Below are positions 33,265 through 63,425 of a stretch of 64,000 nucleotides of DNA, one piece after another (position 1 is the stretch's first letter; every line of letters starts with the position of its first letter). The notes below the pieces were generated by a model. The model saw only the letters and a program-made list of their open reading frames with translations. It had not been told where the DNA came from and ran no database searches. The DNA is from Escherichia phage vB_EcoM_G17. The translations under genes were made by a program, and so were the position numbers. Location of the stretch: the sequence record MK327931.1. The stretch is one strand, 5' to 3'.

Positions 33265-33322
33265 GTATATTGGTACATTAACTATTATATCATATTTTTA
33301 TAAGTTGTCCCACTTATAAAAG

Positions 33323-34857: not shown

Positions 34858-36183
34858 TTAGCCAAGAGAGCGTGCTTTACGTACAAGTTCAGAGTACTTA
34901 GCGATGAAATCTTTAAACGCTGGTACATCTTTAATGGAAATCGCAACCTTATGAAGCGTGATGGTACGAATTGCCAGTACTGCCAGTTCTGCTTGAGTTG
35001 CAGAGAAGTTATGGTCTAGGAAGGTGATGAAGTTGTTACACAGTTTACCCCATTCTTCCACTGGTAGACGTTGTTCTTGCTTCTCATTGAACAGGTCGAT
35101 AATTTTATAAACCAAGTTCAGAGTGATAAAGTAGTTCGCAGAAATATCCAGCGTTGCGTCGATTTCTTTGATTTCACCAGACAGAATAGACATAGTATCT
35201 GGTAGTTTAGCAACGTTCTCAACGTACTCAATGTATTCAGTTGCAACACCTTCACCAACACGACCAGCAATCATTGCACGGAACACTTCTTTATCAATTG
35301 TCTTAGTTTTCTTGAGATCTTCGTAGCGTGCTACTGCTTCCCATGAACGTGGAGAAGTACCACCACTGTGAGAAGGATCTTGTGGACTAAGTGTGTTAAA
35401 GTACTTAGAACCAGTGTTGTTGATGAACGCAACAGTTGCTGGGTTCAAACGTTTTGCAATCGCATAATCGTTAATCCAATCTTGATGATAAGGAATCATC
35501 TCAATGTGAGTCATACGGTCACGCAGTGGTGTAGCAAGAGAGAAAGTTACACCGCCATCAGTTTCACGGTTACCTGCTGCAAGAATCAGTGCAGTCTTAG
35601 GTAGCTTCATCTCACCAACACAACGGTCGAGGATTAGCTGATAAGACGCTGCCTGAACAATAGGCATTGCAGAGTTAATTTCGTCAAACAGAATAACACC
35701 TTTCCAATCTTCGGACAATTTCAGAACTTTAGGTGCAGCCCATACTACCGCAGTTTCAGCTACATAATCTTTTGCTTCGGCAAGCTCAGATTCTTTCAGA
35801 AGAGAACCGTCAGTTTTACGGAAAAGCTTCTCTGGTACTGGAATACCGCGAAGGTCACTTGGTTCGATTTGAGACAAACGGAAATCGATAAAGTTAGTAT
35901 CTTGGTCGATTAGTTTTGCTTCAAATGCAGCCAGTTCACGGCGTAGCTGATCAGCATTTTCAGGGTCAGCTTCGATTTGTTGTTTCATGAACTCGATTTT
36001 AGCTACGTTATCTTTACGCAGTGGGTAATTTTCATCAGCGTATTGACGAGCGATTGCAGACTTACCGATACCTGGGCTACCCCAAATCATCAGGCTATCT
36101 TGAATCATGTCAGCTAGTGCCATTGCTTCTTTAGCTTTCTTTGGAGTCAGTTTAACGTTCAGGATATCGTTTTGAGTAGTCAT
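34858..36183 (-). CDS. MoxR-like AAA+ ATPase
   Basis: Walker A GSPGIGKS, Walker B ILFDEINS; 441 aa; immediately upstream of the VWA gene, as in MoxR/VWA or CobS/CobT-like phage pairs. Confidence 0.75.
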   Translation of the reverse strand: MTTQNDILNVKLTPKKAKEAMALADMIQDSLMIWGSPGIGKSAIARQYADENYPLRKDNVAKIEFMKQQIEADPENADQLRRELAAFEAKLIDQDTNFIDFRLSQIEPSDLRGIPVPEKLFRKTDGSLLKESELAEAKDYVAETAVVWAAPKVLKLSEDWKGVILFDEINSAMPIVQAASYQLILDRCVGEMKLPKTALILAAGNRETDGGVTFSLATPLRDRMTHIEMIPYHQDWINDYAIAKRLNPATVAFINNTGSKYFNTLSPQDPSHSGGTSPRSWEAVARYEDLKKTKTIDKEVFRAMIAGRVGEGVATEYIEYVENVAKLPDTMSILSGEIKEIDATLDISANYFITLNLVYKIIDLFNEKQEQRLPVEEWGKLCNNFITFLDHNFSATQAELAVLAIRTITLHKVAISIKDVPAFKDFIAKYSELVRKARSLG

Positions 36184-36352
36184 GTATATATTTCCTTTTG
36201 TTGGATAAAATCGTTTAAGTTTCTATTATAGCCAATCCGTGGGCAAAAGTAAAGGAACTGTGTTAAAATAATTTAACTTATCAGTTCCTTTGTTACTTCA
36301 TGAATCATCCGTGTGTTTAAAAGGTAAATCTCTTTGCTGTCTTGATGTGAAC

Positions 36353-36380
36353 ATTATATCACATCGTTTCAACTTGTCAA
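36353..36380 (-). promoter_or_regulatory. Consensus sigma70-type promoter (TTGACA-N16-TATAAT), proximal copy
   Basis: Minus strand reads TTGACA-agttgaaacgatgtga-TATAAT, with TG at -14/-15 (extended -10). Confidence 0.6.
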
Positions 36381-36446
36381 TCACTTTTTTTCTTTTTTTT
36401 TCAAACTCACATCTTGTGTCGCTTGAAAACTTTATGTCTGATGCTT

Positions 36447-36474
36447 ATTGTATCACATCATTCTATCTTGTCAA
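36447..36474 (-). promoter_or_regulatory. Consensus sigma70-type promoter (TTGACA-N16-TACAAT), distal copy
   Basis: Minus strand reads TTGACA-agatagaatgatgtga-TACAAT; spacer closely resembles that of the proximal copy (aga...gaa...gatgtga). Confidence 0.55.
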
Positions 36475-36498
36475 CATTTATTTTTAATTCATTTTTTC

Positions 36499-36879
36499 TT
36501 ACATATGAATAGAAAATAACTGTTTAAAATCGTCACAACACAATGTTAATTCAGTTATTATCATTGCATCTGTCAGATATATGTACTGACCTTCAACATA
36601 ATAAGGTGAAGTACATATTCTGTCAAGTGATGTAAACATTATAGAACTTTTAAATTCTCTTTGCAAGGGGATTTTTGTAAATTCATAAAGATTATTTTCT
36701 TTACAAATTCCATACCCAAACTTGCTAAGACGTAAACCACCGCCAGTTCTGAAATTTTCAAAAATTGACATCAGAAGCATACGGTCTGTTATTTCTGAAT
36801 CTGATTCATGTACTTCCCTAACTTTGGAAAGTACATTATTTTGATATTCAGTACTGTTATGTGATGGTTCTGGAAACAT
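36499..36879 (-). CDS. Hypothetical protein (126 aa)
   Basis: ORF at the end of the minus-strand virion block. Confidence 0.5.
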   Translation of the reverse strand: MFPEPSHNSTEYQNNVLSKVREVHESDSEITDRMLLMSIFENFRTGGGLRLSKFGYGICKENNLYEFTKIPLQREFKSSIMFTSLDRICTSPYYVEGQYIYLTDAMIITELTLCCDDFKQLFSIHM

Positions 36880-36882
36880 ATA

Positions 36883-37278
36883 TTAGTCTCCAACAAAACC
36901 TTGACGTGCAGCATATGATGGTGCACCAGGCTCATTATAGTGTTGTACGCCTTCTTTGTCAATTGTTGGTCCCATACCTTCAGTTCCAAAACAACCTGCA
37001 ATGGCTTCCAACACTTCTTCATCAGCAACTTCAGTACTTTCATCATTATATCGAATGTCAGACAAAATGTCACAGGCTTTTTGTAGTTTATCTACAATTT
37101 CTTTTTGGTCTTCACCAGATTTAATCTTATCAACAATATCAATAAGACATTTGGTAATATCCTTAAGAACATCAACTGCTACAACATCGGATTCAACTTC
37201 AACTGAAAAACTTTCGTCTTCATCTCTTCCGGTAATTTCGTCTAACGCTTCAACTAGTTCACGATAATTATATTGCAT
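36883..37278 (-). CDS. Acidic hypothetical protein (131 aa)
   Basis: ORF; strongly D/E-rich. Confidence 0.55.
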   Translation of the reverse strand: MQYNYRELVEALDEITGRDEDESFSVEVESDVVAVDVLKDITKCLIDIVDKIKSGEDQKEIVDKLQKACDILSDIRYNDESTEVADEEVLEAIAGCFGTEGMGPTIDKEGVQHYNEPGAPSYAARQGFVGD

Positions 37279-37279
37279 A

Positions 37280-38260
37280 TTATTTGTCTCCTAAAAATTT
37301 CTTGTATTTTTCTTGGAGACTTTCAAAAATATCTTCTACTTCTTCATCAGAATCATCTTCCAAGTCAATGTTACCTTCAGGTGAATCATCTTCTTCACTT
37401 TCATTAACATTTAGTGGGTTATCTCCTAATGCAGTGCCTGGGAATTTTGGTTCAAATTTATGAACACGATTTTCGTTCCCTTCATTATCATAATACTCAG
37501 GTTCTGGACGATTGTCAAGATCTTCATCTACAACACGTCTCCAATAAAATTGATTGCCTTTTGCAATTACAACAAAATGGTCACCTTCAACACCATTAGT
37601 CTTTAGTTGACCATCACGAACGGCATCAGCTTCTGTATCATATGGACCATAATCAGTACTGTTAGATGGTTCTTCATCTTCAGAGATACTTAGATCTGGT
37701 AGAAATTGGGTATCTTTCATTTCTTTATCGGTAGCAGGATTACCCTCTACTGAAAAATCTTCGTCTTCTTCTTCGTTAATACCAGCAAGAGATAGCATAC
37801 GACTAAAATCGAATTCTTCTTCAATAATTTCTTCTTCTTCCTCATCGTCTTCTTCAACTGATTCTAGTTGAGGTTGACCACTAAGGTCAAGAGAAAAATC
37901 TTCTTCACCTTCTACACCTGGTTCTGAAAATTCAGCATCCATACTAACTTCATCTGTGTCAGCACCAAAATCACCAACATCAGCGGAAAGATCATCAACT
38001 GCCGCTGCTAGTGGGTCTTCAACTGAAGTTTCAATTCCACCAATTTCTTCTTCAGCACCAATAGAATCGAGATCTAGTGGAGCAATAGGTGGAAGAGATG
38101 GAGTCATAGACCCCATAGATGGTACTGGAGCGGCAACTACTGGGTCTTGACGTTCAGCTTGACCAGCAAGAGCTAACATACGTGATAGAGTTTCCAAATC
38201 ATCAGATTCTAAACCTGCGATATCGATTTTAACTTGTGCTTCATTAATTTTTTTAGCCAT
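37280..38260 (-). CDS. Highly acidic protein (326 aa), poly-D/E segments
   Basis: ORF with long acidic tracts (VEEDDEEEEEIIEEEFDF, DLEDDSDEEVED). Confidence 0.6.
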   Translation of the reverse strand: MAKKINEAQVKIDIAGLESDDLETLSRMLALAGQAERQDPVVAAPVPSMGSMTPSLPPIAPLDLDSIGAEEEIGGIETSVEDPLAAAVDDLSADVGDFGADTDEVSMDAEFSEPGVEGEEDFSLDLSGQPQLESVEEDDEEEEEIIEEEFDFSRMLSLAGINEEEDEDFSVEGNPATDKEMKDTQFLPDLSISEDEEPSNSTDYGPYDTEADAVRDGQLKTNGVEGDHFVVIAKGNQFYWRRVVDEDLDNRPEPEYYDNEGNENRVHKFEPKFPGTALGDNPLNVNESEEDDSPEGNIDLEDDSDEEVEDIFESLQEKYKKFLGDK

Positions 38261-62735: not shown

Positions 62736-63425
62736 TCACTTCGTTCTCTCGTAACTCAAGAAGTCACTGCGTTTACTTCGTAAACTAGTTCCTTCTGAAA
62801 ATGATAATGTACTTTAAAAACTTGACGGGATTTGTTGAGGACTATTACATCCCCCCGCAGGGGAATGAAGGTAATAAAAAAGAGACAATTAAGTCTCTCT
62901 TGACGATGATGGCATCGGATATTATCGAATTGCGAATTTCTCAAATTTTGGACGGATCTTTCTTGTACCAAAATTTAGAGAGCGAAAGCGGGTTGCTCGG
63001 TTTCTCTCTATCGCAGTCATATGCAACGGTCGCTGGTCTTTTCATCAACAGCACTCAGTACTAACTCTATTCGATCAAAGTAGTACTTGTTCTCAAATTT
63101 TGGACGCAACTTTCTTGTAAAAATTGCGTCCGCTATTCTTGAACTCCCTTAGCAAATCTGGTAAGGTGCGAACCTTATACATCTATCTAGGAACTCTCTG
63201 TATGCTTATCGGAGTTCTTTATACAGCCGTGTCGCCGTGATTCGTGGTCTTACATCGTGTTTGTTTGAATGCCAGTACTCTAACAGGTTTCTTCTGCTGT
63301 TCGCTACAACGGTAAAGCTCATCTATCCTTTACATTTTCAAGAGAAGTAGGTTCTCAGTGTCCATTTTTCAATGTCCGTTGTCATTTTCTATATACATTA
63401 TATCATTGGAACATATAATGTCCCA
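62736..63425. other. ORF-free structured region with duplicated 30-nt motif; candidate ncRNA or regulatory region
   Basis: About 690 bp without a convincing ORF; visibly more G+C than the flanks; 17+10-nt direct repeat TTCTCAAATTTTGGACG-nnn-CTTTCTTGTA at 62938-62970 and 63089-63120; perfect hairpins including CCCC-CGCA-GGGG (62851), AGAGAC-AATTAA-GTCTCT (62881), GGACGCAA/TTGCGTCC (63102-63131) and TAAGGT-GCGA-ACCTTA (63160). Confidence 0.3.

Follow-up and report, generated by a model that had tools for sequence, protein, structure and literature searches.

In the A1, A2 and A3 promoters of phage T7 and in the P1-P2 pairs of the Escherichia coli rrn operons, co-oriented strong sigma70 promoters lie about 100 bp apart and together feed a single transcription unit, with host polymerase using them in its unmodified form. 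Here we analyse a comparable pair of putative promoters, P1 and P2, on the minus strand of a 64,000-nucleotide stretch of the genome of Escherichia phage vB_EcoM_G17 (sequence record MK327931.1), which as a whole is called the window. Like the T7 set, P1 and P2 are co-oriented, of strong sigma70 type and about 100 bp apart, as far as can be read from their sequence. The T7 promoters, however, stand at the genome end that enters first and serve early genes, whereas P1 and P2 follow a late operon midway along a genome of 350 kb and point into a terminator-like leader. We consider it moderately likely that P1 and P2 are diverged copies of a promoter module of about 94 bp that restart minus-strand transcription toward an ATPase gene and a VWA gene by way of this leader.

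The window belongs to a 121Q-like Asteriusvirus; these are myoviruses with genomes of about 350 kb and members of the Rak2-like jumbo phage group. It is 99.2% identical over its whole length to positions 249681-310508 of phage 121Q (reverse complement), and a 2.5-kb query around P1 and P2 matches Escherichia phages 121Q, phAPEC6 and Sharanji at 100% identity. Near the pair, a 121Q coordinate equals 310510 minus the window coordinate; the genome-wide tests below were run on the complete annotated 121Q record. Rak2-like jumbo phages carry about 600 genes, mostly without known function, in genomes of about 350 kb, and their transcription programmes are experimentally unmapped. A literature search returned no promoter or transcriptome data for 121Q, PBECO4, phAPEC6, Sharanji or RaK2.

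Two described promoter types are also close to the pair. Extended -10 promoters of the TRTG type share with P1 and P2 a TG at -15/-14, which in this pair lies within a TGTG at -17 to -14 ahead of the -10 hexamer. Classical extended -10 promoters usually use the extension to offset a poor -35 element, whereas P1 and P2 join it to a consensus -35. The other type comes from phage CBB, where a predicted 'Promoter 1' (TGAAACG-N16-TATAAT with TGn, a motif also identified in GAP32) precedes DNA-synthesis genes and a gp55-like sigma gene, and a 'Promoter 2' is RpoD-like with an UP element (PMC5259590). CBB Promoter 1 can be aligned base for base with one of the promoter classes that we find in 121Q (the second class, below), and both precede DNA-metabolism and gp55-like sigma genes; CBB Promoter 2 matches the other, TTGAC-type class, upstream A-tract included. 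The second class has thus already been predicted for the phage group (CBB, GAP32), and for Asteriusvirus we found no paper on it. Unlike either CBB class, P1 and P2 draw their -35 from one class and their -10 region from the other, and they are duplicated in tandem.

Architecture of the promoter pair

Both promoters lie inside a 315-bp gap that runs from the stop codon of 121Q gene 562 to the start codon of gene 563 (ATG at 36183). A tail/structural block (genes 551-562, a late structural operon) ends with gene 562, and the pair is positioned behind it at about 274 kb of 121Q. P1 (TTGACAAGATAGAATGATGTGATACAAT, 36474-36447, minus strand) consists of a -35 TTGACA at 36474-36469 and a -10 TACAAT at 36452-36447, and P2 (TTGACAAGTTGAAACGATGTGATATAAT, 36380-36353, minus strand) of a -35 TTGACA at 36380-36375 and a -10 TATAAT at 36358-36353. 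Each -35 hexamer matches TTGACA at six of six positions, and the two -35 starts are separated by 94 bp. The spacers are 16 bp long and end in TGTGA, part of a GATGTGA common to both, with the TG at 36455-36454 in P1 and at 36361-36360 in P2; the extended -10 ATGTGATAYAAT is present in each. The -35, the -10 and the spacer, at 16 bp, all fall within the sigma70 consensus (17 +/- 1 bp for the spacer), and P2 matches at 12 of 12 hexamer positions plus the TG. A preliminary description of this DNA had reported tandem minus-strand promoters 94 bp apart with 16-bp spacers ending in GATGTGA, which the sequence bears out, and its view of them as sigma70-type promoters with an extended -10 is supported by the consensus match and by the conservation described below.

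Further elements surround the two cores. An A/T-rich, UP-element-like tract upstream of P1 (aagaaaaaatgaattaaaaataaatg, 36475..36498, minus strand) begins directly after the upstream stop codon (36499-36501), and a similar A-tract precedes P2 (gaaaaaaaaagaaaaaaagtga, 36381..36404, minus strand); across 42 intergenic extended -10 promoters of 121Q, positions -44 to -40 are A-rich. Transcription is predicted to start near 36440/36439 for P1 and at A 36346, within gttcACATCAAG, for P2. A CATCA occurs in both start regions (gttcACATCAAG in P2, aagCATCAGACA in P1). Between the promoters, a fold predicts a hairpin (UUUUCAAGC..CACA-AGA-UGUG..GUUUGAAAA, 36398..36429, minus strand) whose sequence is largely invariant in Asteriusvirus. 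It does not qualify as a terminator, because an A-run rather than a U-run comes after it, and it would be expected in P1 transcripts only.

Two other promoter readings of this gap were rejected. A TGAAACG in the P2 spacer, considered as a CBB-type -35, lies at the wrong distance from the -10 and reads CTGAACG or TTGAACG in phages vB_Ec-M-J, JNE01 and A4, and we regard it as coincidence. An ATAAATA-type motif is enriched upstream of genes in 121Q; the sole near-match to such a late promoter at this locus, an ATAAATG, lies upstream of the P1 -35 and is not conserved.

Conservation and duplication of the pair

The -35 hexamer of P1 with its GTGnTAnAAT, and the -35 hexamer of P2 with the whole of TGATATAAT, are invariant in seven of seven Asteriusvirus genomes; the P1 -10, TACAAT in the window, is TATAAT in most relatives. 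In the more distant relatives A4, vB_Ec-M-J and JNE01, the flanking coding DNA is only 74-80% identical. As a control we followed four sigma70-like look-alikes inside genes 560-562 (37518-37490, 37073-37045, 36962-36934 and 36626-36598, minus strand), which are 11-12/12 matches. Their hexamers have mostly decayed in the same three relatives, where only GTGACA...TATAAT at 37073 is kept and the 12/12 look-alike at 36962 has become TTGGTA...TATAAA. P1 and P2 stay invariant while the look-alikes decay, and they are therefore under a constraint that is absent from the look-alikes. Six of the window's 14 best sigma70-like sites fall within about 1.2 kb (36353-37518), and a promoter island was considered on this account. 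It was rejected since the four sites inside genes 560-562 mostly lose their hexamers in relatives, and those sites appear non-functional or lineage-specific.

These controls bear on the simplest alternative, that P1 and P2 are chance matches in AT-rich intergenic DNA without promoter function. A simple consensus scan does return weak sites at about the rate of shuffled sequence (63 against 58.9), and several 11-12/12 matches do sit inside adjoining coding genes. The more specific patterns, however, exceed shuffles 20- to 100-fold, their matches are strand-specific and concentrated in intergenic DNA, the hexamers of P1 and P2 are invariant where internal look-alikes decay, and an orthologous promoter is found in at least four other lineages. 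We strongly disfavour the chance explanation and regard it as hardly credible.

The pair arose by duplication. A 49-nt direct repeat in the 94-bp register, 71% identical between its two copies (36495-36447 and 36401-36353, span 36353..36495, minus strand), outlines a duplicated promoter module, and the likeness between P1 and P2 reaches about 20 nt beyond the -10 (global alignment z = 2.8). Escherichia phage SP27 (LC494302) has an exact extra 94-bp copy of the P2 module and so three tandem promoters (Tandem Repeats Finder: 2.0 copies, 100% match). This triplication would reflect a recent duplication, or could in principle be an assembly artefact. From the SP27 copy and the 49-nt repeat we conclude that promoter copy number changes by tandem duplication. 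By comparison with the other genera described below, the tandem pair is specific to Asteriusvirus. A 65-amino-acid plus-strand open reading frame (ORF) at 36290-36487 was rejected as coding, being disrupted by indels and by the SP27 94-bp insertion.

Recurrence of the promoter core

The core of these promoters recurs far more often than in dinucleotide-preserving shuffles, from which all expected counts were taken. In the window, GTGATAYAAT occurs seven times where 0.79 are expected (none of 300 shuffles reaches seven), NNGACA-N13-TGNTAYAAT six times, always on the minus strand, where 0.05 are expected, and GATGTGATAYAAT twice where 0.02 are expected. The corresponding counts in the 121Q genome are 27 against 4.8 for GTGATAYAAT and 22 against 0.40 for NNGACA-N13-TGNTAYAAT, all of the latter on the coding strand, and TTGACA-N16-TAYAAT is found 19 times against 0.81. 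Matches to NNGAC-N15-18-TANAAT are intergenic in 75 of 137 cases, while between-ORF DNA, by ORF calls made here, amounts to 8.6% of the genome. Genome-wide, the core is far above shuffles and is almost always intergenic and co-oriented with genes.

The preliminary description had placed the same core upstream of a clpA gene and of a gene for an 89-amino-acid protein, and GTGATATAAT is indeed found at both places. At the first it belongs to a promoter-like site (TAGACAAACCGTAAGAATGTGATATAAT, TAGACA-N13-TGATATAAT, 12320-12293 with GTGATATAAT at 12302-12293, minus strand) about 40 nt upstream of the ClpA-like gene. At the second (48705-48696, minus strand) it lies 36 nt upstream of the 89-amino-acid gene (121Q gene 549) and has no -35-like hexamer, a terminator hairpin and T-run occupying the -35 position. 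Three more family members lie on the minus strand of the window. One (GGGACAACTTATAAAAATATGATATAAT, 33284..33311), of the second class, precedes 121Q gene 565 and closely follows a terminator-like hairpin (33348-33323); another (GGGACAAAAAACCAATAACTGATATAAT, 52297..52324) is upstream of a nudix hydrolase gene (121Q gene 540) and is followed 64 bp downstream by a second -10-like site, TGGTATAAT; the last (GGGACATTATATGTTCCAATGATATAAT, 63397..63424) faces a gene-free stretch.

Two promoter classes and the hybrid character of P1 and P2

Listing all intergenic NNGAC-N15-18-TANAAT sites, together with a position table of the 42 intergenic TGnTAYAAT sites, separates two main promoter classes in 121Q. 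The TTGAC-type class has the consensus aaaaaatagtTTGACA-N9-AGTACTG-TATAAT-N4-ACATCAAgg, with an upstream A-tract and without the TG extension. It is concentrated at 84-154 kb, where small ORFs each have their own promoter. By the argument made for CBB (PMC5259590), this is likely the early region, and the TTGAC-type class would be the putative early class. The second class has the consensus aaaaa-N4-TGRGACA-a-N12-(g)TG(a/c)TATAAT with a 16-bp spacer, and is found upstream of SSB, primase, exonuclease, topoisomerase, ClpP-like, nudix, ClpA-like, gp55-like late-sigma and DNA-polymerase-region genes, a set that suggests middle rather than early timing. Its upstream hexamer is a conserved non-consensus element and in this differs from the degenerate -35 of classical extended -10 promoters. 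Within the extended -10 family (n = 42), position -16 is G in 24 sites and position -13 is A or C in 36.

TTGACA and TG are anti-correlated, the TG being present in three of 19 TTGACA promoters and in 17 of 20 NNGACA promoters that lack the TT (Fisher p = 2e-5), and CATCA occurs in the start region of 13 of 43 TTGAC-type promoters as opposed to one of 27 others. A third grouping consists of four terminator-promoter fusions, GGTTGACTTCGGTCAGCC-TTTTTGCTATAAT. These lie at 121Q 98722, 109303, 110585 and 112753, are near-identical (GGTTGACTTCGGTCAGCC(C)TTTTTG(C/T)TATAAT) and have a -35 TTGACT within the terminator stem.

Judged by these motifs, P1 and P2 are hybrids of the TTGAC-type and second classes. 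With the former they have in common the TT at -35 positions 1-2, the long A-tract, the 16-bp spacer and the CATCA start region, which both contain; with the latter, the tGTGaTAYAAT extended -10, the 16-bp spacer, the GACA of the -35 and non-structural genes downstream. They differ from the second class in having TTGACA in place of the GRGACA -35-like element, and from the putative early class in a spacer that ends in GATGTGA rather than AGTACTG and in lying outside 84-154 kb. Only three such hybrids exist genome-wide (P1, P2 and one at 121Q 84486), and apart from P1 and P2 all TTGACA-N16 promoters fall within 84-154 kb. Tandem pairs of second-class promoters also occur at 121Q 5208/5283, upstream of SSB (75 bp apart), and in the window at 52324-52297 with TGGTATAAT (64 bp); the tandem layout is therefore not unique to P1 and P2.

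This class structure changes the picture of a single early promoter family that had been proposed from the shared core. That these are recurring phage promoters holds, and what had been taken for one family comprises two classes sharing a -10 region. The sites upstream of clpA and at 48.7 kb had been counted with P1 and P2; the former is a second-class promoter (TAGACA) and the latter has no -35, and the 'one early family' is therefore really two classes.

The shared motifs also account for an inverted repeat at P2. GATGTGA-N8-TCACATC at 36365-36344 surrounds the P2 -10, most relatives have GTGAT-N9-ATCAC at P1, the right arm is conserved in Asteriusvirus, and a similar arrangement occurs at 121Q 191055, all of which would fit a repressor operator or a CRP-like site (TGTGA-N8-TCACA). 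CRP sites have a 6-bp spacing between their arms. The spacing here is 8 bp, the palindrome is lost in RaK2, in Munch and at P1 in the window, the right arm is the CATCA start-region motif that TTGAC-type promoters also have without the left arm, and the left arm is explained by the family-wide preference for a tGTGa extended -10. With the wrong spacing, no conservation outside Asteriusvirus and both arms being promoter-family motifs, we rejected this reading as very improbable.

Orthologous promoters and the sigma factor that may read them

In other genera, a single promoter is found at the corresponding intergenic site, where the orthologues of genes 562 and 563 adjoin it. It reads TTGACA-N16-TATAAT in RaK2, GGGACA-N16-TATAAT in Munch and Kae01, TGAAACG-N16-TATAAT in GAP32, CBB and XbC2, and TGAAACA-N16-TATAAT in pEa50, and those of Munch, GAP32, CBB, XbC2 and pEa50 have a -35-like element of second-class type. 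The CBB orthologue fits the Promoter 1 consensus and is not among the promoters tabulated in PMC5259590. With a promoter at the same position across genera, the promoter is thus old, its -35 following each lineage's grammar. The -35-like element is genus-specific, GRGACA in 121Q and GAAACG in CBB, all of these classes being predictions from sequence.

Which polymerase would use these promoters depends on the sigma factors available. In group 2 jumbo phages, phage sigma factors work with the core polymerase of the host (PMC7824862). The annotated 121Q record includes an RpoD-like (gene 167) and a gp55-like (gene 591) sigma factor and no RNA polymerase gene; a phage with sigma factors and no RNA polymerase must be served by the host core enzyme. 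The preliminary description had assigned the promoters to host RNA polymerase, which this supports as regards the core enzyme, whereas the recurring core marks a class that is probably middle. By established sigma70 rules, a full-consensus promoter with an UP-like tract and TRTG should work with unmodified host holoenzyme.

Enterobacterial hosts share essentially the same sigma70. Because the -35-like element of the second class is genus-specific while host sigma70 is shared, we argue for a phage-encoded reader of that class. We compared region 4.2 recognition helices over E. coli sigma70 residues 582-598, the E. coli fragment being confirmed as residues 551-613: VTRERIRQIEAKALRKL in E. coli sigma70, KSRSSIHRKYSEAMQKL in 121Q gene 167 and TSKATLSRRYNDMMDKV in the CBB sigma. 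The phage sigma differs from E. coli sigma70 at E585, R586, R588 and Q589 of the recognition helix, and at the positions equivalent to R584 and R588 the CBB sigma departs from the sigmas of 121Q and Munch. In sigma70, R584 and R588 contact -31 and -33. The helix differences parallel the motif differences (GRGACA versus GAAACG), a correspondence between two lineages that is suggestive only. As a separate observation, the gene 167 sigma is fast-evolving (59.6% amino acid identity between 121Q and vB_Ec-M-J, compared with DNA about 85% identical at the P1/P2 locus), and in region 4.2 it contains an insertion, with a recognition helix that does not resemble the sigma70 one.

These comparisons raise the possibility, which we find doubtful though worth serious consideration, that P1 and P2 are ordinary second-class (putative middle) promoters rather than early ones, used mainly by host core enzyme with the gene 167 sigma or another phage factor, their TTGACA being tolerated as a variant of TGRGACA. 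P1 and P2 have the extended -10 and the 16-bp spacer that are hallmarks of the second class, the orthologous site has GGGACA in Munch and Kae01 and TGAAAC(G/A) in GAP32, CBB, XbC2 and pEa50, and the genus-specific -35-like element and divergent sigma helices, with the further CBB changes at the R584/R588 equivalents, point to a phage-encoded reader. The TT of the -35 (kept in seven Asteriusvirus genomes and RaK2), the long A-tract and CATCA are, however, foreign to the second class, and host holoenzyme would bind a full consensus promoter whatever else uses P1 and P2; the link between sigma residues and motif comes from two lineages only.

Phage T4 offers a further comparison, since like 121Q it combines a gp55-like sigma, an ATAAATA-type motif and replication genes with a normal -10 and an altered upstream element. 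In 121Q the upstream element is at the normal -35 position with a 16-bp spacer, and the full-length RpoD-like sigma is present in 121Q and not in T4. No 121Q gene is annotated as MotA or AsiA, going by annotation only and with no homology search, and no MotA box was seen.

A conserved terminator-like leader

Transcripts from P2 (start A 36346) and P1 (start ~36440) are predicted to carry leaders of 163 nt and about 257 nt, and in the Asteriusvirus alignment the leader is better conserved than the adjoining genes. MAFFT failed to align its hairpin across genera, so a covariance model was built from the short-loop genera only (Munch, GAP32, CBB, XbC2 and pEa50). The model matches 36303-36230 (minus strand) at 37 bits (E 4e-5), its only significant match in the 121Q-like genome. 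Within this element, hairpin arms at 36291-36282 and 36260-36251 with an inner stem GUUAAA/UUUAAC are followed by the tail UUUACUUUUG. An ACGGAT motif lies just upstream of the match (motif 1, 36312-36307) and another within it (motif 2, 36240-36235), and in all lineages the hairpin has an A(C/U)GGA(U) motif on either side.

All genera examined have the hairpin, and its conservation extends over at least four named ones. Nine of nine stem pairs form in 10 sequences, two of them with compensatory changes (GC to AU and AU to CG). In GAP32, CBB, XbC2 and pEa50 it is a textbook intrinsic terminator, in which a stem of 9 bp closes a loop of 6-8 nt and is followed by a U-rich tail (in GAP32 and CBB, a 6-nt loop and 7-8 U). 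The window hairpin has a 10-bp stem plus an inner 6 bp and an interrupted tail, UUUACUUUUG, and a simple terminator scan did not report it. Rfam gave no match at the gathering threshold in the whole window and only chance-level matches in 35900-36900. As no other terminator lies between the gene 562 stop codon and P1, the hairpin probably ends late structural transcripts. Transcripts from P1 and P2 must also pass it, which suggests attenuation or a short leader RNA.

A different account of the locus takes up this suggestion and supposes that P1 and P2 mainly give rise to a short non-coding leader RNA, of about 100 nt when started at P2 and about 195 nt when started at P1, ending at the hairpin and U-tract, an attenuator or small regulatory RNA, with the ATPase mRNA coming from read-through or from a further promoter, P3. 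The order of promoter, 40-150 nt, hairpin with U-rich tail and gene is kept in Asteriusvirus, RaK2, Munch/Kae01, GAP32/CBB/XbC2 and pEa50; to this the account can add the textbook terminator of GAP32 and CBB, the covarying stem, the flanking A(C/U)GGA(U) motifs of all lineages and the single-copy status of the element. At other places in the genome, moreover, a terminator precedes or overlaps a promoter and does not follow it. We nevertheless think it rather unlikely: the hairpin may simply terminate the late operon, which has no other terminator before P1; the second motif lies beyond the U-tract, so that read-through RNA or the DNA itself would matter; Rfam has no match; the 5' part of the putative RNA varies between genera in length and sequence; and the covariation amounts to about two independent events. 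A bolder and less probable version holds that the tandem promoters exist mainly for a hairpin-terminated leader RNA of about 60-150 nt, a protein-controlled attenuator or small RNA (bound, for example, by a GGA-recognising protein such as host CsrA or by a phage factor) that gates the MoxR-ATPase and VWA genes, with one, two or three promoter copies tuning the dose.

P3 is a promoter-like TTTACT-N17-TATAAT (36225..36253, minus strand; 10/12) directly after the hairpin. It is conserved in Asteriusvirus, weaker in RaK2 (TATCAT) and absent in Munch, GAP32 and pEa50, and was rejected as a general mRNA promoter on this distribution. Two further ideas about the leader were also rejected: mini-ORFs from its GGAUGA/AUGGAU motifs vary in frame and length (2-26 codons), with none in Munch, and pairing of motif 1 with a UUAUCC upstream of the Shine-Dalgarno sequence is in the minimum-energy fold and not conserved in other genera.

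Proposed mechanism

In the reading that we favour, of a duplicated module that restarts transcription, each copy would comprise an UP-like A-tract, TTGACA, a 16-bp spacer, a TGTG (TRTG-type) extended -10, TATAAT or TACAAT, and CATCA. Placed immediately after the last stop codon of the late operon, the pair would start transcription anew in the direction of the genes for the MoxR-like ATPase and the VWA protein. Since all sigma70 determinants are at or near consensus, P1 and P2 would be expected to be used by unmodified host holoenzyme once the DNA enters the cell, and because the two promoters carry the GACA core and gTGaTATAAT of the second class, they would probably remain active when that class takes over, perhaps read by the phage RpoD-like sigma. 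Transcripts from about 36440 and 36346 would run through the conserved leader, where the hairpin at 36291-36251 and its U-rich tail would stop late-operon transcripts and part of those from P1 and P2, the ATPase then being expressed by read-through only.

Several points weigh against this mechanism. The 16-bp spacer of P1 and P2 is 1 bp below the optimum. The terminator-like hairpin lies 55 nt downstream of the P2 start and, if efficient, would block ATPase expression from both promoters, and P3, which lies beyond it, could be the real mRNA promoter in Asteriusvirus. The orthologues in Munch, GAP32, CBB, XbC2 and pEa50 are plain second-class promoters, so an 'early, host sigma70' character may belong to Asteriusvirus and RaK2 only, or may be without functional meaning. 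The early and middle assignments of the classes are based only on the kinds of genes downstream, and the literature search found no start-site, RNA-seq or in vitro transcription evidence for any Asteriusvirus.

Promoters of this sort are to be expected in phages, and the pair is unsurprising in kind, a real but ordinary control signal. The analysis nonetheless provides a testable promoter grammar for Asteriusvirus, with a TTGAC-type class (AGTACTG, CATCAA), a TGRGACA extended -10 class and a few hybrids. P1 and P2 are the best candidates for promoters served by unmodified host polymerase outside the early region, and the class motifs offer a handle on recognition by the fast-evolving phage RpoD-like sigma. 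The comparison further draws attention to the conserved leader element that precedes the MoxR/VWA genes, and P2, as a compact, near-ideal sigma70 promoter, should be usable in E. coli.

Neighbouring genes and additional genome features

The first gene downstream of the pair, 121Q gene 563 (34858..36183, minus strand), encodes a MoxR-like AAA+ ATPase similar to N4 gp24 and has a Shine-Dalgarno sequence AAGGAAA at 36197-36191. The DUF2201/VWA gene comes next (34783-33359, minus strand), and the block continues with hypothetical 121Q genes 565 and 566, a DprA-like gene and thymidylate synthase. Terminator-like hairpins follow both the ATPase gene (34838-34811) and the VWA gene (33348-33323).

Long gene-free gaps in 121Q (135194-137161, 90232-90955 and 192744-193357) have predicted promoters facing in (for example at 135759, 135844, 90286 and 192762) and may hold unannotated genes or non-coding RNAs. 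In the window, a gene-free element of about 230 nt (~63330-63105, minus strand) lies downstream of the second-class promoter at 63424-63397. A second copy at 121Q 326,690-326,900 is also downstream of a second-class promoter; a core of about 100 nt is roughly 93% identical between the two and can form hairpins, and there is no Rfam match. The pair may represent non-coding RNA genes.

The palindrome CAGTACTG occurs 33 times in the window (for example at 34975, 36849 and 37654) against 1.0 expected (0 of 100 shuffles), and is the most frequent 8-mer of the 121Q genome, with 194 copies in coding and intergenic DNA. AGTACT has 903 copies in 121Q, one per 386 bp. In the putative early promoters the motif makes up the end of the spacer (AGTACTG-TATAAT). 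So strong an excess of a palindrome is unusual and could mark a regulator, nucleoid-protein or modification site.

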